Shown piece after piece: positions 53,913-63,224 of a stretch of 64,000 nucleotides of DNA (positions are counted from its first letter, which is position 1; each line of letters begins with the position of its first letter). Location of the stretch: assembly GCA_047601445.1 (NCBI GenBank), contig JASGJH010000001.1, positions 6,624,001 to 6,688,000 on the forward strand. The letters run 5' to 3'. The stretch is from Myxococcales bacterium. Lineage in GTDB: Bacteria; Myxococcota_A; Polyangia; Polyangiales; DASUME01. The notes under the pieces are model-generated. The model did not search any database. It was not told the origin of the DNA and worked only from the letters and a program-made list of their open reading frames with translations. The position numbers and the translations under genes are program-made.

Positions 53913-55802
53913 CTACGGAGGGAAGCTCGCCGGTAGGTCCGCCAAGACTTCCGAGGTGGTGCGCGTGGTGGTGAGGCCCGCGGTGCTGACTTTCACCACG
54001 CCTGCGCTCGCGTTCTTCACGGTGGAGGTGGTCGCGGGCAGCCAGCCGGCCTGGAAGTTCGGCAAGCTCACGAGCTCCTGGGGGAACTTGATGCTGTGTA
54101 TGGTCTCGCCGACTGGGAACCAGCCTGCCTCCGCGTGGACCGTGAAGATGTGGGCGTTGGGCACGGCTACGTAGTTGAAGCCCAGCGTGTACTCGGTGGC
54201 CCCGGGATCGTCGTCGAAGTTCGCCTCGGGCGCGAAGTGGTCGTAGCCACCCGACTGCAGGAGGCTGGCGCTGAAGTCGACCGGCAAGGTCACCGCATAG
54301 GGAGAGCCGGCGGTGGTGTAGGCCTCGACCGTGTGCGTGTGGCTGCTGTCGGGGCTGTCGGAGGCGACGAAGTGCAGTCGATCGCTCGGTATGCGATTGG
54401 CGTTGGGCAAGGTCTTGAAGTTGACCGTGGCAGTGGAGCCCGCTGGCACAGGATTGTCCGAGATCTTCATGCCCAGGTCGGCATTGCTGACGGTGAACTC
54501 CACGTAGGCCTGCGGGGCCGCGCTGACCACGCCGGAAACGTTAAGCGTCTCCGCCTGAGGAGCGAAGCCGCCCGTGTCCAAGTTCACGCCCTGGAAGTCG
54601 CTCGACGGGAGCTTGATGTTGCGGAAGACGTTGATTCTGATTGGTGCGCCGCCGCTGTCGATGCCGAAGACGATGTCGGAGGCCTGGTTGGCCACGAGCT
54701 TGTCCATCGAGTAACTGAGGTCGCTTGGATTGCTCCAGCCCTTGAGGTTGTTGTACCACTTGTGCGCGTACCGGAAGTTGCCGGCAGTGGGGTTGGTGGG
54801 CGGCGTGATGCTGCCGCTGCGCGACACCTGCGTGGGCCCACTGCCCGTGCAGTAGGCCATCTGCTTGATGAACACCGCGGCATGCGACGCGGGCGCGAAC
54901 AACACCTGACCGCTCGAGGCGCTGCCCGAGCACACGTAGGCAAGGCCGTAGCGCGGCGAGCTGACCTTGAAGATGTAACTGCCCGTCGATGCAGCCGACA
55001 GCTCCTGCCAGGGACCATTGCCATCCTGATAGGCGAACCAGGTTTGATTGGCGGGCGCGCCCCAGGGATTGGTGCTGGACACGATGATGGTGGTGTCGGC
55101 CACGGCCGCATCGGGTTGGCCCGTGCCCCCATCGGGAACACTCACGCTGCCGTCCTTGAAGGGCGCGCCCGAGTCGATTGCGCCCGCGTCAGTGCGGGTG
55201 CCCAGCCCCGAGTCCATACCTCCGGTGTCGCCCGCGTCGGGCTCGCCGAGTCCGGCATCCATGCTGCCCGGGTTGCCCGCGTCGGGCCCGCCGACGCCTG
55301 CGTCGAAGTTACCCGCATCCGCAGGAATGCCCGCGAAACCGAGGCTGAAGTGCTTGGTCTTGGCGGCCACGGACTTGCCGTCGTTGGTGCTCGCGAGCTT
55401 CTCGAACTCGGTGTCGGAGCCCTCCTTGGTGAAGAACACCTTGGCCTGGGGCTCATCCTTGTCCGTGTCGATCTTGACCGTGACTTCCTTGTTGAACGTG
55501 GTGCCCTTGGGCCCGAACTCGTAGACCCCGGAGACCAGGTCCTTGGCTTCGGCTGGCAGCGTGACCTTGTCGGTGTCGATCTTCTTGGCGGAGATCATCA
55601 CATCTTTGTCGAGGGCGCCCGCCGGGATCTCCAGGCTCACGCCCTTGCCCTGCACCATGCCGCCCTTCTCGCCGACGATGACTCTGACCTCGTCGGGCAG
55701 CGTCTCGCCTTGCTCATCGGGGGAGGAGGTGTCGGAGCAGCCCACGAAACCTGCGCAGCAGACCACCACGGCCAAGCCGCGAACCAAGTGACCCAATGAC
55801 AT
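53913..55802 (-). CDS. Lipoprotein with ZU5-like N-domain, DAG-rich linker and beta-rich C-domain (paralog 2)
   Basis: Lipobox FVGC; GG...LEIPAGAL, YEFGPKG, KHFS. Confidence 0.85.
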   Translation of the reverse strand: MSLGHLVRGLAVVVCCAGFVGCSDTSSPDEQGETLPDEVRVIVGEKGGMVQGKGVSLEIPAGALDKDVMISAKKIDTDKVTLPAEAKDLVSGVYEFGPKGTTFNKEVTVKIDTDKDEPQAKVFFTKEGSDTEFEKLASTNDGKSVAAKTKHFSLGFAGIPADAGNFDAGVGGPDAGNPGSMDAGLGEPDAGDTGGMDSGLGTRTDAGAIDSGAPFKDGSVSVPDGGTGQPDAAVADTTIIVSSTNPWGAPANQTWFAYQDGNGPWQELSAASTGSYIFKVSSPRYGLAYVCSGSASSGQVLFAPASHAAVFIKQMAYCTGSGPTQVSRSGSITPPTNPTAGNFRYAHKWYNNLKGWSNPSDLSYSMDKLVANQASDIVFGIDSGGAPIRINVFRNIKLPSSDFQGVNLDTGGFAPQAETLNVSGVVSAAPQAYVEFTVSNADLGMKISDNPVPAGSTATVNFKTLPNANRIPSDRLHFVASDSPDSSHTHTVEAYTTAGSPYAVTLPVDFSASLLQSGGYDHFAPEANFDDDPGATEYTLGFNYVAVPNAHIFTVHAEAGWFPVGETIHSIKFPQELVSLPNFQAGWLPATTSTVKNASAGVVKVSTAGLTTTRTTSEVLADLPASFPP

Positions 55803-55888
55803 CGATTGCCCTTCTCGAGCGCGACGGCGCGCCTAGTGATCGTACGGGTGACTGAGCGCCGCACACAAGCAGCACACTCGGGGCAGGC

Positions 55889-57697
55889 TCACTGGGGGAG
55901 GTTGGTCAACGAGCCCTGGCTGACGGCTCGCGCGCGCAGCTGGCTGCCCGCGCTGTCGTCGATGAACATGCCGCAGGCCTCGGTGTTTACGTAAGACAAC
56001 TGTGGGGGCGCCCATGCGGCCTTGAACTGGGGCAAACCCGTGAGGTCCGGATAAACCAGGGTGTGGTTGGTGCCGCCATCGACCATCAACCAGGCGCGCT
56101 CCCAGCTCATTTCCACGTAGCCCGTGTTCCAGGAGAAGTTCAGGCCATAGGTGTTGAAGCTGGGGTCTTCGTCGAATTGCATGCTGGGTGCGAAGCGGGA
56201 CTCGTCGGCCAGCGAGACGTCTGCGGCGAACAGGGGCGGCATGCTGATGTTGGGCCCGGAAGAGGTCGTGAACAGCGTCAGGTCGCGATAGCCGCCGCTC
56301 ACGGTGTCCATGACGTAGTACCGGATGCGATCGCTGGGATCCTTGAGCCCTGCGGGCAACGAGGTCACGGGGGCGGTGGCGTTCTTGCCATCGAACTCCA
56401 CCGTGCCGAGCACATCCATACCCGCGCTCGCACCGGACACGGTGTACTGCGCGCTGATGATGTGCTCGGCGCCCAGATCGCCTACCTGCAGGGTGCCGAA
56501 CTCGGGGGCCGCGCCGGCGTCGAAGAAGTTGAGGTCGATGCCGCTCTCGTCGCCGGCGAGCGTCACGTCGCGCAACACGTTCACCTTCACGAAGTTGCTG
56601 CCATCGTGCAGACCCACCACGAGGTCGGTGGTCTTGCCGGGGATGAAGCCGGGGATGCTGTAGGCGTACTCAGGATCGGCGAAGGGCGACACGTCGGCAA
56701 ACCAGCGGTGACCGAAGCGCACCTCGCCGTTGGTCACGCTGGCCGGGGCCAGGATGTTGCCCGAGCGCGCGACCGTGATCGGCAACGGTGCGCAGTCGCC
56801 CTGGGCTTCGATGGTGAGGGTGGCCGTGGTCTTGCCGGCGTGGATGATCTGCTGCCGCGGCTGCTCACCGTCGCACACCGCGACGAAGCTGTAGCGCTCG
56901 CCCTTGATGTCGAAGCGATAGATGCCGGCCGACTCTGCCGTAATGACCTGCCAGGCGCCGTCGCCGTCCTGGAACGCGGCCCAGGTCTGGCTCGTGGGGG
57001 TGCCGTAAAAGTCGTAGCTGCGCACGGTGACCTTGGGCAGCGGCGTCACGCCGGAGTCGCTGGTCGTGCCGCCGTCGGGGAGCGTGACGCCCGCGTCGAG
57101 CTTGGCGCCGGCATCGGGCGCGCCCGTGCTCGCATCGTCGTCGCCGGCATCGAGTCCACCATCGCCGGTGCCGGGATCGATGGGACCCGCGTCATGGCCC
57201 GCGTCCATCACGGCGACGTCGTCGGCAGGGACGCCGACGAAGCCGAGGCTGAAGTGGTTGGTCTTGGCGGAGACTTGCTTGCCGTCATTCGCGCTGGCCA
57301 GCTTCTCGAAGTCGGTGTCGGAGCCTTCCTTGGTGAAGAACATCTTGGCCCCGGACGTTGCCTTGTCGGTGTCGATCTTGACGGTGACGTCCTTCATGAA
57401 CTTCGTGCCCTTGGGACCGAACTCATAGACGTCCGAGACGACGTCCTTGGCGGAATCGGGCAGGCTCACCTTGTCCGTGTCGATCTTCTTGGCCGAGATC
57501 ATCACGTCCTTGTCGAGTGCGCCCTCCGGGATCTCGAGGCTGACGCCGTTGGCTTGCACCACGCCGCCGCCCTTGCCGACCTGGACTACGACTGCGTCGG
57601 GGAGCTCGCTGTCTTGGTTGGGATCGTCAGAGCAAGCCACGACGCCCGCGCAGCTCAGCAAGAGGGCGAGGCAACGCATCGAATTACGCAGTGACAT
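55889..57697 (-). CDS. Lipoprotein with ZU5-like N-domain, DAG-rich linker and beta-rich C-domain (paralog 1)
   Basis: Lipobox VVAC; LEIPEGAL, YEFGPKG, NHFS; AAGGA RBS. Confidence 0.85.
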   Translation of the reverse strand: MSLRNSMRCLALLLSCAGVVACSDDPNQDSELPDAVVVQVGKGGGVVQANGVSLEIPEGALDKDVMISAKKIDTDKVSLPDSAKDVVSDVYEFGPKGTKFMKDVTVKIDTDKATSGAKMFFTKEGSDTDFEKLASANDGKQVSAKTNHFSLGFVGVPADDVAVMDAGHDAGPIDPGTGDGGLDAGDDDASTGAPDAGAKLDAGVTLPDGGTTSDSGVTPLPKVTVRSYDFYGTPTSQTWAAFQDGDGAWQVITAESAGIYRFDIKGERYSFVAVCDGEQPRQQIIHAGKTTATLTIEAQGDCAPLPITVARSGNILAPASVTNGEVRFGHRWFADVSPFADPEYAYSIPGFIPGKTTDLVVGLHDGSNFVKVNVLRDVTLAGDESGIDLNFFDAGAAPEFGTLQVGDLGAEHIISAQYTVSGASAGMDVLGTVEFDGKNATAPVTSLPAGLKDPSDRIRYYVMDTVSGGYRDLTLFTTSSGPNISMPPLFAADVSLADESRFAPSMQFDEDPSFNTYGLNFSWNTGYVEMSWERAWLMVDGGTNHTLVYPDLTGLPQFKAAWAPPQLSYVNTEACGMFIDDSAGSQLRARAVSQGSLTNLPQ

Positions 57698-58066
57698 AGG
57701 AGTGTCCTTGTGAAAGCGGAGTCGCTGAGAGGGAAGGAGAAGGATGTAGATCAAAGCCGTGGTTCCGGGGCTGGCTACCTGATCGGGTAGTTCGGGGCCT
57801 GCTCGTTTCGGGCGATGAGCCACCCAAACTAGCCACGACTCCAGCGCAGTTCGCCGACGAGGCGAGACCGCGCGCCCAACTTCCCGAAGCCATGTTTCGT
57901 GTCCCCACCGCGACGCGTGTGGGCCGATGTTAAAGGGCGGCGTACGTCGGGCACAAGAAGCAGGCTCGATTTCCGCTCACATGTTTCCGTCCGCGCGCGC
58001 TTTTCCCCTGCGAAGCGGCGCTGCGCGGTGCCCGAGGGGGACGTGAGCGACCTGTACGGCGATGAA

Positions 58067-59318
58067 TCAACACTCGGCCCAGCGCAGCAGGCCCTCCCAT
58101 GGTGGGAGTCCATCGTGCAGCGCGTGGAGCGGCGGTGTCTGCATGCTCCCCACATCGCACACGCGGGGGGCCAGCCGGGGAGGCAGGTTGCTCAGGAGCG
58201 CGTCCCAATCGTGCACGCCCGCCACGCCCAGGGTCTTGAGGTGCACCCCCAGCGGAGCCAACTTGGCCGGCAAATCCTTGGCGCTCGCGAGTCCCAGCAC
58301 CTGCAGGTTGCGATAGCCCGGGGTCAGGCGTAGGGCGCCGCGCTCCTCACAGCACACCGAGAATCCGTCGCCCTCGAGCAGGCGTCCGCGCATCGCCCCC
58401 ACGCCGCGCCAGCTCACCTGGGCGCTGGCGATTTCGAGGGGCAAGGTGCCCCGCGGCAGCGTGGCATGTAGCGCCTCGAGCTCCGCGAACACCAGCTCGC
58501 CGAACTCCTCGAGCCCCACGTTCGCGCCGTTCACGACCCAGGCCACCAGCGGCGAGAGACAACCGCGTTGATCGTAGGCTGCCACGTCGAGCGCGAGTCC
58601 GCGGGCCACCTCGCGTGCGCTCTCGAAGCTGGCGAGGGCTGGCTTGTCCACGAACACCGCCCCCAGGCCATGTCCGTGGGGCACGAAGCTCACGGTGGCG
58701 CCGAGGTTGCCGCGGATTCTCGTTTAGCGTGCGGTCGCTGCCGTAGGCGATGACCGCGTCGGCCTGCTCGAACAGGGCGTTCAGATGATGGCTCTCGTCG
58801 CCGGCGAAGGTGGCCACGCCGAAGGCATCGCTGAGGCCCGAGTCGCTCTCGTCGAGGGCCTCCTTGAGCAGGCGCGCGAACACGTCGTCATCGGAGGAAG
58901 CCTTGGCCACCACGGGCCAGCCGAACAGGAGCGGCAGTGCTGCGCCGCGTGCGCCCGCCGTGAACACGTTGCCCGCCAAGATCAAGGCGCACAGCTGTCC
59001 GGGTCGCACCAGGCGCGCGCGTGGATGGGGAGGCTTCACGCTCCTGGCTAGGGCCAACAGGTTCGGTTCACTGAGGTCCGCGAGGGCGTGCTCGAGGGCC
59101 CAGGCCACCATGGGTGCGCTCAGGCCCGAGCTCTCCGGGATCTCCGCGCGCGCACGCTTACCGAGCGTGCTGTCCTTGGCGAGCAACAGCTCGAAGGCGC
59201 GCCCGAGCCAGCGCGCACGGCCCGCGTAGTCCGCGTGCCACAGCGCATCGCCACGCGCCACCACCTGGGTGGCCAGCGCGCGCACCGAGCGGCCGTCTCG
59301 GGTGACGCCGTGGATCAT
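58067..59318 (-). CDS. LuxC-like acyl reductase, split by an apparent +1 frameshift near 58717
   Basis: LAGNV, KASS and AYGSD in the upstream frame; VPHG and YDQRGCLSP (catalytic Cys) in the downstream frame; removing one base joins them (NE-IRGNLGATVSF). Confidence 0.85.
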
Positions 59319-60430
59319 GAGGTCCTCCGCTGCAGCAGCTGGTCGGCCGTGATGGAGCAGCCGCGCGCCACCGCCCCCTGGGCGCGCCCGAGCAGCGAAA
59401 GGCCATGTGCGTCGAGCTGGCCCAAGTCAGCAGTCTGGATGGCACCCACGCTGTCCAAGTTGGCCACGTCGTCGATGCGCACGAGCCCGCGTTCACCGTC
59501 GGCTGCGGGCAACAGCGATTCCGGATCCACCACGCTCACACGTACGAAGCTCGGGGCCCACAGCCGACGCGGCCCGACCTGTTGGCCGAGTACTGCCTGG
59601 CGCAGGCTGGTCTCGTAGAGCTGCGACGAGAGCTCGGTCATGCCGTACTCCGCCACGACGAATGCCTCGGGGATGCCGAAGCTCTCGCTCAGCCATGCCC
59701 GCATGGCCTCCGGTGCCACCTCACGTGAACGACCCTTGAAACCGCCCGTCTGCATCACGCGGCTGCCCGGCGGCAGCCGATACTTGGTGCTGCCCAGGAG
59801 ATCGAGCGCATGCACGAAGGCGAACGACGTCCCGAGCAAGGCCACTGGCTCACCGGTCTCCTCGGTCGCGCGCAGCGTGTGATCGAGCGCCCTGATCTCG
59901 TCTTCACCGATGGGCCAGACGTGGCGCGTGCGTCCGTTGCCGAACCACTCCACGAAGCGCGCCAACATGTACGAGAGGGACGAGTCGCCGAGCTCGGACT
60001 CCGAGGGAGCGAGAATCAACAGCGACATGCGCGGGCGGTCCGGGAACAGCGCGTAGCGCGCGGCCACCTTGGCGGAGGCGTCGTAGAGCGAGAGATCGGC
60101 GAGCGCATGCTCGCTGCGCTCGTCGTGGGTAGTGCCGGAGCTGCGGAACAGGCGCTGCTGATCCTGCGGGTGTCGGCTCGAGATGCGAGCGAACCGGAAG
60201 GCGTCGGTGGGCAGCGCGGGCACGTGGGCCACGTCGACGGGAGTCTTGCCCTTCAGGCGCTGAGTGCTGAAGTTCTCGTAGGGTTGCACGTAGCGGCGCT
60301 GGTACTCGGCCAGCGCAAGCAGGAGCCTGTCGCGGGTGACGTCGTCACGGGTGCCGTCGCTCAGGCGTGCGATCAGAGCGAGGGCACGCCCATGGAGCTC
60401 GGCGCGTTCGTGGGCCTGCTCTGGCGTCAC
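59315..60430 (-). CDS. LuxE-like acyl-protein synthetase
   Basis: FRSSGTT, MQTGGFKGR, EYGMTELSSQ, TADLG, LLGR, C-terminal RGCS; GTG start overlapping the upstream stop. Confidence 0.88.
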   Translation of the reverse strand: MTPEQAHERAELHGRALALIARLSDGTRDDVTRDRLLLALAEYQRRYVQPYENFSTQRLKGKTPVDVAHVPALPTDAFRFARISSRHPQDQQRLFRSSGTTHDERSEHALADLSLYDASAKVAARYALFPDRPRMSLLILAPSESELGDSSLSYMLARFVEWFGNGRTRHVWPIGEDEIRALDHTLRATEETGEPVALLGTSFAFVHALDLLGSTKYRLPPGSRVMQTGGFKGRSREVAPEAMRAWLSESFGIPEAFVVAEYGMTELSSQLYETSLRQAVLGQQVGPRRLWAPSFVRVSVVDPESLLPAADGERGLVRIDDVANLDSVGAIQTADLGQLDAHGLSLLGRAQGAVARGCSITADQLLQRRTS

Positions 60431-61752
60431 GACAGGCACTCCGCGAGCGCTTGGGCGAAGGCGTCGATCTGGGCGTCGGTGATGCACAAGGGCGGCGTGA
60501 GGCACAGCACGCTGGGCGGGGAACCTCCGGGCGAGGTGATGAAGCCCTTCTCGAGCAGAGCGCGCGTCAGCCACAGCACACGCGCTGGATTCGCCTCGGC
60601 TTCGACCTTGGTGAGCTCCACGCCCAGCAACAGGCCGCGACCGCGTACGGCCACGCCCGGGACACGCTCGATGGCACGGCGCATGCGCTCGCCGCGCTCC
60701 ACCGCGCGCGCGCCCACGTCCATGCGCTCGAACTCGGCCAGCACGCTCAGCGCGGCGGCGCAGGCCGGCGGATTGCCGAGGAAAGTGGAAGTGTGGATGG
60801 CCTCCCCGCCCGGGTCGCCCCAGGCGCGCATCACTTCTTCGCGGCCCAGGCAGGCGCTGATCGCCACGCCGCCACCGAGCGCCTTGCCCAAACAGATCAG
60901 ATCCGCCTCGGCGCCCATCTCCAGATGCAACCAGGTGGGACCGGTGCGCCCGAGTCCGGTGTAGATTTCGTCGACGATCAGAAGCGCCCCCTGCTGCTTG
61001 CAGATCTCGGACAGCTCCTGCAGAAAACCCGCCGGCGGCACGTGGACGCCGCCGCGACCCTGGATCGGCTCCACCAACAGCGCACCCACGTTCTCGGGCA
61101 ACGTGGCGAACGCGCGCGCCACGCTCTCGAGGCAAGCCTCCAGCTCGTCGGCGTGGCGCGGGAAGCGCGCGAACGCCACGTGCTGATTGAGCTGAGCCTG
61201 GAAGGGTGCGCGGAAGCCTTCGCTATAGCCACAGGCCGCGAGTGGCCCGTGCGAGAGCCCGTGGTAGCCGCCCTCGAAGGCGATGACTCCCGGGCGCCGC
61301 GTGTAGAGCACGGCCGTCTTGAGTGCGGCCTCGATGGCATCGGCGCCACTCAAGCCGAGGATCACACGCGCGGCCGGAAAGGGGGCACGCCGTGCGAGCT
61401 CCTTCAAGAGCTGCACCTTGGTGTCCGAAGGATGCACGTCGCCCAGCGCATGCAGGAGGTTCTCTTGCTGGATACTCAGGGCCTTCACCACGCTCGGATG
61501 GGCGTGCCCGAACATGGCTGCGCCGAAGCCCGCGGTGAGATCCACGAATACGTTGCCGTCCACGTCGCGCACGTTGGCCCCGCGGGCGCTCTGCCAGCTG
61601 ATGGGGTCGTGGGAAGCGCCACTCGCTTCCTTGCGCCGCGCCCGCCGTGCCGTGAGTGCCGGACACTCCACCTGGGACAGGGTCTCCGCCAGGGCCGCGG
61701 AGCGCGGACCCGGGATTTCTGTGAGCAGGCTGGGCAATTCTTCGCCGAACAT
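60427..61752 (-). CDS. Class III PLP-dependent aminotransferase
   Basis: DVDGNVFVDL, GGYHG, VEPIQGRGG, DEIYTGLGRTG, GKALGGG, RGRGLLLG. Confidence 0.95.
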   Translation of the reverse strand: MFGEELPSLLTEIPGPRSAALAETLSQVECPALTARRARRKEASGASHDPISWQSARGANVRDVDGNVFVDLTAGFGAAMFGHAHPSVVKALSIQQENLLHALGDVHPSDTKVQLLKELARRAPFPAARVILGLSGADAIEAALKTAVLYTRRPGVIAFEGGYHGLSHGPLAACGYSEGFRAPFQAQLNQHVAFARFPRHADELEACLESVARAFATLPENVGALLVEPIQGRGGVHVPPAGFLQELSEICKQQGALLIVDEIYTGLGRTGPTWLHLEMGAEADLICLGKALGGGVAISACLGREEVMRAWGDPGGEAIHTSTFLGNPPACAAALSVLAEFERMDVGARAVERGERMRRAIERVPGVAVRGRGLLLGVELTKVEAEANPARVLWLTRALLEKGFITSPGGSPPSVLCLTPPLCITDAQIDAFAQALAECLS

Positions 61753-61933: not shown

Positions 61934-63224
61934 GTGACGCAAGACGCCATCCTGCTGCACGGCGTGCGGGTGTTCGACGGCCATCACGGAAGCCTCCGGG
62001 AAGCCTGTGATGTGCTCGTGCGCGGTCGTCACATCGACTCCATCGGACCCGTTTCGGATCATCCACCGTCGGGCCCTGGCTTGAAGGTGATCGAGGGCAA
62101 GGGACGGGTGCTGATGCCGGGCCTCATCGACGCCCATTGGCACAGCATCTTCGCCGCGATCTCCCTGGCCGACGGCTACACCGCCGATGCTCCCTTCTTG
62201 CACCTTGTGGCGGGCCGCGAGGCCGAGCGTACGTTGCTGCGCGGCTTCACTACGGTGCGCGACGCGGGTGGGCCTGCCTTTGCGCTCAAGCGCGCCATCG
62301 ACCAGGGCATCCAGCCGGGTCCGCGCATCTTCCCGTGTGGGGCTTTCATCACGCAGACCTCGGGCCACGGCGACTTTCGCATGCGCCACGAGCTCCCGCG
62401 CGATCCATGCCGGCACCTCACGCACACCGAGATGATGGGCGCGGCTAGTATCGCCGACGGAGCGAGCGCCGTGCTCCGCGCCGTGCGCGAGCAGCTCATG
62501 CTCGGGGCCAGTCAGATCAAGTTGATGGCCGGGGGGGGGCGTCTCCTCGCCGCACGATCCCATCGACGTCACGCAATACACGGAGGCCGAAATGCGCGCC
62601 GCCGTCGAGGCCGCGGACAACTGGGGCACCTACGTGATGGTTCATGCCTACACGCCGAGGGCGATCGAGCAGGCCATCCGCGTGGGCGTGCGCTGCATCG
62701 AGCACGGGCACTTGGTGGACGAACCCACCGCGCAGCGCATCGCCGAGACGGGCACCTGGTGGAGCATGCAGCCGTTCCTCGACGATGAGGACTCCATCCC
62801 GCTGCCTGACCCGTCCGCACGCCAGAAGCAGCTCGAGGTCATTGCGGGCACCGAGCGCGCGTATGCGCTAGCCAAGAAATGCGGCGTGAAGCTGGCCTGG
62901 GGAACCGACGTGTTGTTCGATGCGTCACTCGCGGCGCGCCAAGGGAAGATCCTCGCCAAGATGACGCGCTGGTTCAGCCCCGCTGACGTGCTGATCTCGG
63001 CCACCTCCGGCAATGCGGAGCTGCTCGCGCTCTCGGGCAATCGCAACCCCTACGCAGGAAAGCTCGGCGTGGTGGAGCGCGGCGCGCTCGCGGATCTACT
63101 CCTGGTGGATGGCAATCCGCTGACGGACGTTTCCTTGCTTGCCCGTCCGGAGCGCGCGCTGGTGATGATCATGAAGGACGGCGTGATCCACAAGGACACC
63201 AGCGGCGAGCTCAATCAGCGCTAG
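61934..63224 (+). CDS. Metal-dependent amidohydrolase (prolidase-like), frameshifted in a G9 tract at 62531-62539
   Basis: PGLIDAHWH and GFTTVRDAGG in the first frame; HAYT, IEHG and GTD in the second; G8 restores GGGVSSPHDP. Confidence 0.88.

Follow-up and report, generated by a model that had tools for sequence, protein, structure and literature searches.

On the minus strand of the window (the whole 64,000-nucleotide stretch of DNA that was analysed), three consecutive genes encode a class III aminotransferase (60427–61752, 441 aa; PF00202, E 3e-90), a LuxE-like protein (59315–60430, 371 aa from a GTG start; PF04443, E 2e-9), and a LuxC-like protein spread over two frames (58067–59318; PF05893). 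A GTGA stop/start overlap (60427–60430, minus strand) joins the first two genes and an ATGA overlap (59315–59318, minus strand) the last two; both can be read in the sequence, as an earlier note describing three coupled genes with 4-bp overlaps had proposed. The gene identities given there agree with the Pfam domains, and the SSGTT, C-terminal RGC, and DQRGCLSP motifs are all present. The note's statement that luxAB and luxD are not found nearby also holds, with none of the 13 proteins scanned (window 47.8–64 kb) matching the luciferase or LuxD families, which are likewise absent among the 51 recurring neighbour families of the phylum loci. An LLM (luciferase-like) oxidoreductase is encoded elsewhere in the genome, away from the trio. 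A promoter and terminator scan found nothing.

According to the accessible part of the report on LuxC–LuxE of luminous bacteria (PDB 7XC6; PMC9157457), the catalytic residues are Lys238, Arg355, and Cys364 in LuxE, and Cys296 and His442/Asp443 in LuxC. This LuxE is the best solved match of the LuxE-like protein (E 1.5e-6), which scores over the PF04443 cut-off and holds the equivalent adenylation residues Lys232 and Arg349 and the C-terminal thioester Cys358 (the Arg and the Cys assigned from the spacing of motifs), with the Lys and the Cys retained in 41/41 aligned homologues. Its score against the true-LuxE equivalog NF052244 is far under the cut-off (27.3 vs 550 bits). Judging from these features, it is predicted to be an acid-adenylating, self-thioesterifying enzyme that would activate 7-carboxy-7-deazaguanine (CDG).

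In the LuxC-like protein, the N-terminal half (58719–59318, minus strand) matches positions 74–183 of PF05893 (E 2e-8), and the C-terminal half, in the other frame (58067–58720, minus strand), matches positions 185–401 (E 2e-18). The catalytic Cys (DQRGCLSP, about 58560) and an HDG motif sit in the C-terminal frame, downstream of the frameshift in this assembly; in the LuxC family profile, which matches 7XC6 LuxC (7XC6_A) with E 3e-36, they align with Cys296 and, for the HD, His442/Asp443. The frame is broken by an extra base (58717–58718, no strand), seen as a single uncompensated 1-base gap against the intact orthologue of the relative L131, to which the N-terminal half is 76% and the C-terminal half 84% identical. 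Relatives carry both halves in one frame, and the extra base is probably an assembly error, or otherwise a recent mutation. The trio shares with 7XC6 LuxC–LuxE the protein families, the catalytic residues, and a CoA- and carrier-free relay. Unlike that system, it is coupled to an aminotransferase, has no luxAB or luxD beside it, and combines a LuxE under the equivalog cut-off with a LuxC about 60 residues shorter, its substrate likely being a heteroaryl acid.

The aminotransferase holds the PF00202 fold, the PLP lysine, and the DE motif of class III enzymes, and its predicted structure (pLDDT 94) exhibits a GABA-transaminase fold (TM 0.89); among solved structures, a racemase matches its sequence best. 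The closest NCBIfam families are the acetylornithine and GABA transaminases, and the protein scores below the cut-off of every family among the 25 matches listed (best 266 vs 457 bits). It reaches neither the curated cut-offs nor the substrate-binding residues of GabT, ArgD, PatA, BioA, or PigE. The reference positions were Arg141, Glu211, Gln242, and Arg398, the substrate-binding residues of GabT. In 78/78 orthologues, position 166 (GabT Arg141) is Leu, Met, or Val, Arg233 occupies the Glu211 position, the motif DE[IV][YFW]T lacks the Gln of position 242, and the Arg398 position holds no Arg. Lys290, G104-D105, and Arg233 are invariant in the same 78, and His320 is invariant alongside Arg233 and Asp105. 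Since the usual carboxylate-binding arginines are missing, plain transamination with 2-oxoglutarate or pyruvate is not assured. By these sequence traits, the protein belongs to an uncharacterised class III subfamily.

The proximity to acetylornithine and GABA transaminases, together with a near-universal single-copy presence that suits core metabolism, would be compatible with a trio that bypasses a step in amino-acid or cofactor metabolism (ArgBCD, or tRNA-free ALA synthesis) or degrades an amine in reverse. This is extremely improbable: every NCBIfam family among the 25 matches listed scores below its cut-off, and LuxC, as far as the available portion of the source describes it, is devoid of the hydrolytic residues of aldehyde dehydrogenases. 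Because two ArgD-family genes of the genome exceed the TIGR00707 cut-off and a third gene is ArgD-like, the ArgBCD-like bypass suggested in the earlier note is unlikely. A stand-in for ArgD or BioA was rejected, as the genome has both, and so was tRNA-independent ALA synthesis replacing HemA/HemL (HemA occurs in 364/401 genomes including this one, which also has HemL).

The aminotransferase gene lies directly upstream of luxE in 28 of the 29 closest relatives, many of which belong to one genus, and contiguous aminotransferase-luxE-luxC genes were found in 67 of 100 hand-picked, diverse loci; this gene order is not due to chance. A lack of such conservation had been named as what would refute the note's reading, and the test did not refute it. 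An initial protein-only genome scan returned nine loci. No conserved fourth partner gene was found in the phylum, the recurring neighbours being lineage-specific housekeeping genes.

That LuxE and LuxC of luminous bacteria use myristate, and that cascades from acyl group to aldehyde to amine are known, both as described in partial sources, would speak for the main idea of the note, conversion of a fatty acid by the trio into a fatty amine or another aliphatic amine. In the accessible part of a preprint on tambjamine alkylamines (bioRxiv 10.1101/2025.08.11.669332), TamA/TamH and TabQ/TabE/TabA turn an activated acyl group into an aldehyde and then a primary amine, combining, like the trio, a reductase with an omega-transaminase. 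However, as described there, these systems rely on an acyl carrier protein, work with a C12 chain, and lie in a natural-product cluster, whereas the trio has no carrier and behaves like a single-copy core module. Neither a carrier protein nor a thioesterase, acyltransferase, or product cluster is conserved around the trio, and no acyl carrier protein was found among recurring neighbours or the window proteins scanned, in a scan of calls from 80–90 aa upwards that could miss a small carrier. A fatty product would also leave the QueC/QueF exclusion and the queE clustering described below unexplained, the LuxE-like protein scores far under the true-LuxE cut-off, and such a product is very improbable. 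The carrier-free logic from acid to aldehyde to primary amine is supported by the conserved catalytic residues and co-occurrence; the proposed fatty amine, polyamine, or amino-lipid products find no positive evidence at the locus, and distribution and clustering favour CDG.

Presence and absence were counted over 401 genomes of the phylum, among which kin are not independent. The aminotransferase subfamily occurs in 323 of them and LuxE in 320 (both in 313, neither in 71), and the trio is present in about four in five of those sampled. A LuxC orthologue (E < 1e-40) was detected in 27/27 LuxE-positive genomes tested, most of them chosen because LuxC had not been seen beside luxE, and in 0/25 QueC-positive genomes (three weak matches). 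Aminotransferase, LuxE, and LuxC behave as one unit, which is single-copy and retained in a closed genome of 1.8 Mb. The 24 viral hits are other class III enzymes without luxE, luxC, or que genes, and the annotated phages hold no LuxE match.

QueC, in turn, is found in 67/401 genomes and coincides with the aminotransferase in only six (54 expected), against 317 with the aminotransferase only, 61 with QueC only, and 17 with neither, a table that overstates the exclusion because the genomes are related, the QueC-positive ones forming a limited number of clades. The QueC of four of the six overlap genomes is an extra copy of the DNA-modification type, encoded in a separate queC/queE(/folE2) cluster that is accompanied by dpdB in two cases; the other two overlap genomes (G297 and G329) have no such explanation. 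G285 and G138 carry QueC and QueF and no trio, although their family-mates carry the trio. QueF is present in 8/9 QueC-positive genomes, and QueF matches appear in 4/80 trio genomes, the three examined being without the catalytic Cys. One LuxE- and QueC-positive genome (G279) was rejected as an exception, its LuxE falling in a separate branch linked to a FAD oxidoreductase.

The genome studied here (98.7% complete) has a QueD-like protein, QueE, two TGT, QueA, and QueG, and gives no match to QueC or QueF with models that match both in control genomes. The downstream proteins (TGT, QueA, QueG/H) are all over cut-off, and both TGT copies carry the Cys158 and Val233 equivalents of the preQ1 type. 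QueE is best matched by TIGR04349 (280 of 300 bits; a QueE beside queC scores 266), and QueD reaches 66 of 89 bits in NCBIfam, yet its PTPS domain is over the Pfam cut-off. Among 80 trio genomes, QueE is clear in 59, weaker and QueE-like in 20, and not found in one. In 13 of 80 metagenome loci from several lineages (42–87% pairwise identity), queE is directly upstream of the aminotransferase gene; three of these 13 also contain luxE together with luxC, fused in one of them, nine show neither within the stretch examined, and one ends at a contig edge. One metagenome contig (L265) bears the order aminotransferase-luxE-luxC-queD-queE.

In bacterial queuosine synthesis, QueC and QueF take CDG through preQ0 to preQ1 (PMC5699537, PMC11130926). 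The phylum distribution and the gene clustering with queE/queD make CDG the likely substrate of the trio, which probably replaces QueC and QueF and leads from CDG to preQ1 without a nitrile. From the genes, residues, co-occurrence, near-exclusion, and clustering observed, we infer all the substrates and products of this route. The LuxE-like protein would adenylate CDG using ATP and hold the acyl group on Cys358; the LuxC-like protein would receive it on its catalytic Cys and, through NAD(P)H reduction, yield 7-formyl-7-deazaguanine, which the PLP aminotransferase would transaminate to preQ1, leaving TGT, QueA, and QueG to complete queuosine on tRNA. Like QueC and QueF, the trio is predicted to act between QueE and TGT, with CDG as substrate, preQ1 as product, and ATP used before NADPH. 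The two systems share no homology, and the predicted route passes through a thioester and an aldehyde instead of an amide and a nitrile, takes its nitrogen from a PLP amino donor, and forms no preQ0. A literature search returned no such nitrile-free route to preQ1. Against this reading, luxC is frameshifted as sequenced, the trio lies 1.9 Mb from queE in this genome, and queE falls within the stretch in only 1/100 luxE-centred phylum loci (L038, 3 kb away). The genome could also salvage preQ1, since a YhhQ/QPTR transporter is present; this transporter is missing from 2/5 trio genomes tested.

The atypical active site, with invariant Arg233, Asp105, and His320 and without Arg141, Gln242, and Arg398 equivalents, and the racemase as best solved-structure match would also suit a trio that acts on CDG without releasing free preQ1 as proposed, whether by a different chemistry, by use of an unusual donor, or by making another 7-deazapurine for tRNA, DNA, or a metabolite. 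CDG does enter other pathways without QueC, such as those of tubercidin and roseomycin, as far as the accessible portions of the sources describe them. Nevertheless, preQ1-type TGT, QueA, and QueG, which require the aminomethyl group, are retained, QueF is lost along with QueC, and the single-copy trio persists in the 1.8-Mb genome, all of which renders this alternative improbable.

Heteroaryl acids fit as substrates of this LuxE/LuxC branch because a related clade lies behind TPP riboswitches with genes of the thiamine-salvage type. Homologues with 35–38% identity are encoded after a TPP riboswitch on plasmids of Pantoea and Azospirillum (NZ_CP155067.1, NZ_CP029832.1), in operons comprising luxE-luxC and an SDR, joined in Azospirillum by an NMT1-type ABC transporter and an M20 hydrolase. 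These operons share with the trio the luxE-luxC order, the SSL motif, and the LuxE identity noted above. They, together with a thiD gene upstream of queE-aminotransferase in L255, could point to salvage of the thiamine pyrimidine, from an aminopyrimidine carboxylate to aminomethylpyrimidine. However, the plasmid LuxE proteins form a branch of their own (support 100/100), the aminotransferase is absent from both regions read, where the SDR likely leads from acid to alcohol in a thiamine context, and neither the window nor any of 23 metagenome loci containing the aminotransferase yielded a riboswitch. Such a role for the trio has at best a slight chance, smaller still than that of a fatty amine.

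The preQ1-forming, nitrile-free route is probably the main queuosine source for most of the phylum, and probably for several other phyla, and the task of a large luciferase-free LuxE/LuxC branch that reduces heteroaryl acids and whose sister branch serves in thiamine salvage. Reviews assign the steps from CDG to preQ1 to QueC and QueF and class genomes without them as salvagers; if the route is correct, about 80% of the phylum would be misclassed queuosine makers, and the same would probably hold for lineages of other phyla. It would likewise provide a function for a large set of proteins that carry lux annotations in dark bacteria, set the aminotransferase apart as a new subfamily, and make available a cascade of three enzymes that converts a heteroaryl acid into a primary amine without a carrier.

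The class III aminotransferase, LuxE-like and LuxC-like genes constitute a real, conserved three-enzyme module. They lie on the minus strand of the window, and the translational coupling claimed in the earlier note is borne out, since 4-base stop/start overlaps join the aminotransferase (441 aa; gene call at 60427-61752), the LuxE-like protein (371 aa; gene call at 59315-60430) and the LuxC-like gene (58067-59318; a Pfam match split over two frames). A survey of 401 phylum genomes gave LuxE homologues in 320 and this subfamily of aminotransferases in 323, as single copies with few exceptions; both occur together in 313 genomes, and 71 have neither. In 100 luxE loci, chosen for diversity and contig size among 240 matches listed, the three genes are contiguous in 67, luxC adjoins luxE in 86, and the aminotransferase adjoins luxE in 76, the linkage on which the earlier note had staked its reading. 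An unlinked member is usually found elsewhere in the same genome, and in one closed genome from this order, 1.8 Mb in size (locus L067), all three remain in order. Because the unit is conserved while its remaining neighbors are lineage-specific housekeeping genes, this distribution suggests a core pathway rather than a natural product. Directly downstream in the window (53913-57823, minus strand) lies a tandem pair of 630-aa paralogues, both with a ZU5 domain and an N-terminus like that of a lipoprotein, which were not seen as conserved neighbors of the trio in relatives. The source records of close protein relatives give Myxococcales/Polyangiales as their origin.

In the sequence as it stands, a single extra base at 58717-58718, located by comparison with a relative 76% identical in DNA, deprives the LuxC product of its catalytic cysteine. 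Compared with the intact orthologue, the two LuxC halves show 76% and 84% identity, at least as much as the other two genes (76% and 74%), and the break is thus either recent or an error; an assembly error is probable. The source assembly (9.5 Mb, single contig) contains a further frame break in an aminotransferase at 9.47 Mb of contig C1, and two more were found among 51 genes tested. An amidohydrolase gene at 61934-63224 (plus strand) likewise spans two frames, which meet in a G tract around 62534-62540, probably through another assembly indel. A YhhQ/QPTR transporter is also encoded in the genome, which could therefore survive even if luxC were really broken.

The trio is not a lux operon, and would act instead as LuxCE plus a transaminase. 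Lys232, Arg349 and Cys358 of the LuxE-like protein correspond to Lys238, Arg355 and Cys364 of LuxE in 7XC6, the solved LuxC-LuxE fatty acid reductase, residues assigned to adenylation and thioester transfer in that paper (PMC9157457). Yet true LuxE is set a threshold of 550, where this LuxE-like protein reaches 27. When 34 intact LuxC orthologues are combined into a profile, the best match is 7XC6 LuxC (E 3e-36), with an aldehyde dehydrogenase as runner-up (E 4e-8). The aminotransferase, of GABA-transaminase fold, falls below every curated family among the 25 shown and is a distinct subfamily: its 78 orthologues keep Lys290, Gly104-Asp105, YHG[LMV], Arg233 and HT-x-T, and lack the equivalents of Arg141, Glu211, Gln242 and Arg398 of the GABA transaminase GabT. 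Given the roles of these four residues in GabT, the sequences fit a substrate that need not bear a carboxylate and may be an aryl aldehyde. A structure-atlas cluster of 698-aa GNAT acetyltransferase-class III aminotransferase fusions, mostly from Acidobacteriota, is similar in structure to the model of the aminotransferase (TM 0.91).

The acid-aldehyde-amine logic of the earlier note probably survives in this LuxCE-plus-transaminase anatomy. Its ArgBCD-like bypass is unlikely, ArgD being present in the genome, and replacement of ArgD, BioA or HemA/HemL was rejected because each is present. QueC and QueF were not found in this genome, which encodes QueE (C1:4.74 Mb), a QueD-like gene, queA-tgt, a second tgt and queG. 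The bacterial-type TGT genes (C1:666758-667819 and C1:4727004-4728056) both hold Cys158/Val233; one follows queA, and the other has an LLM-class oxidoreductase as its neighbor and is 13 kb away from queE. The step that this gene set lacks, from aryl-COOH to aryl-CH2NH2, likely matches the chemistry predicted for the trio. 7-Carboxy-7-deazaguanine (CDG) would react with ATP to CDG-AMP, be loaded onto the cysteine of LuxE and then onto that of LuxC, in a thioester relay modelled on LuxCE, and be reduced with NAD(P)H to 7-formyl-7-deazaguanine, which the PLP enzyme would convert to preQ1 with an amino donor. This aldehyde is already known from QueF mutants, which release it. We infer all these substrate assignments, and consider synthesis of preQ1 from CDG via thioester and aldehyde likely.

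The distribution of QueC, present in 67 of the 401 genomes, is in line with this assignment: 317 genomes hold only the aminotransferase, 61 only QueC, 17 neither and 6 both, against 54 expected by chance in a set that includes kin and is thus not independent. Additional clusters account for four of these six (L196, L197, L199, L201): queC-queE-folE2 with dpdB in G192 and G247, queC beside queD and folE2 in G308, and queC-queE interrupted by a transposase in G363. These are likely 7-deazaguanine DNA-modification islands, which would need their own QueC because the host trio route would make no preQ0; G297 and G329 have no such explanation. Conversely, G285 and G138 hold QueC and QueF and no trio, which other members of their families have. 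Eleven genomes (completeness 81-94%) lack aminotransferase, LuxE, QueC and QueF. QueF matches occur in 4 of 80 trio genomes, compared to 8 of 9 QueC-positive ones, and the three examined (L293, L294, L295; trio-positive, family f38) are T-fold proteins without the catalytic cysteine, not linked to the trio. QueE is clear in 59 of the 80 (49 by a TIGR04349 match at E < 1e-60, 10 by passing the cut-off of TIGR04508); 20 have a weaker match that is QueE-like, and 1 has none. In G095, a closed 1.8-Mb genome, queG is apparently broken (its C1:855693-856165), and the trio, queD, queE, queA, tgt and the YhhQ transporter are still present.

Clustering with queE is a second line of evidence for linking the trio to preQ1. 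Among the best 80 of 583 confirmed metagenome loci for the aminotransferase profile, 13 carry queE directly upstream, 4 of these QueE proteins passing the TIGR04349 cut-off; luxE and luxC also follow in L219, L225 (where they are fused) and L235. L265 (38% GC) reads aminotransferase-luxE-luxC-queD-queE, with divergent LuxE and LuxC and with QueD and QueE under cut-offs. These queE-linked aminotransferases, from several groups, share the signature and are 40-46% identical to that of the window. However, 9 of the 13 loci show no luxE or luxC within the stretch covered, and queE is nearby in only one (L038) of the 100 phylum luxE loci. Look-alike clusters in the atlas, mostly from Verrucomicrobiota, Vulcanimicrobiota, Gemmatimonadota and Myxococcota, are leads, not a host range.

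Other luxE-luxC systems have different partners. Pantoea and Azospirillum plasmid homologues hold a TPP riboswitch followed by a luxE-luxC-SDR operon (L342 5745-9352; L343 5742-13059), to which Azospirillum adds an NMT1-type ABC transporter and an M20 hydrolase, a candidate for an undescribed acid-aldehyde-alcohol salvage route for thiamine moieties. By inference, this thiamine link fits aminopyrimidine-type acids as LuxE/LuxC substrates. In five phylum loci (L084, L090, L092, L093, L096), a FAD-dependent oxidoreductase lies directly upstream of luxE-luxC, with an aconitase-family gene in four and a LuxE without the SSL motif. Each type forms its own branch (100/100) in a 41-row tree, where the two are sisters (97/98), with deep forks open and an arbitrary root. 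Therefore, preQ1 synthesis would be predicted by the aminotransferase subfamily, and not by luxE-luxC alone.

No LuxE/LuxC/aminotransferase route from CDG was found in the literature searched, which covered few subscription journals; the supplements of a 2026 QueE genome-mining preprint may list such windows. The sources compared were PMC9157457, PMC12041015, PMC5699537, PMC11130926, PMC13740343, PMC3660597, bioRxiv 10.64898/2026.04.15.718813 and bioRxiv 10.1101/2025.08.11.669332. Queuosine reviews treat the lack of QueC/QueF as salvage. In G065 and G013, two genomes without a YhhQ/QPTR transporter, QueE and QueG are nevertheless retained together with the trio, which is likely a non-homologous replacement of QueC and QueF.
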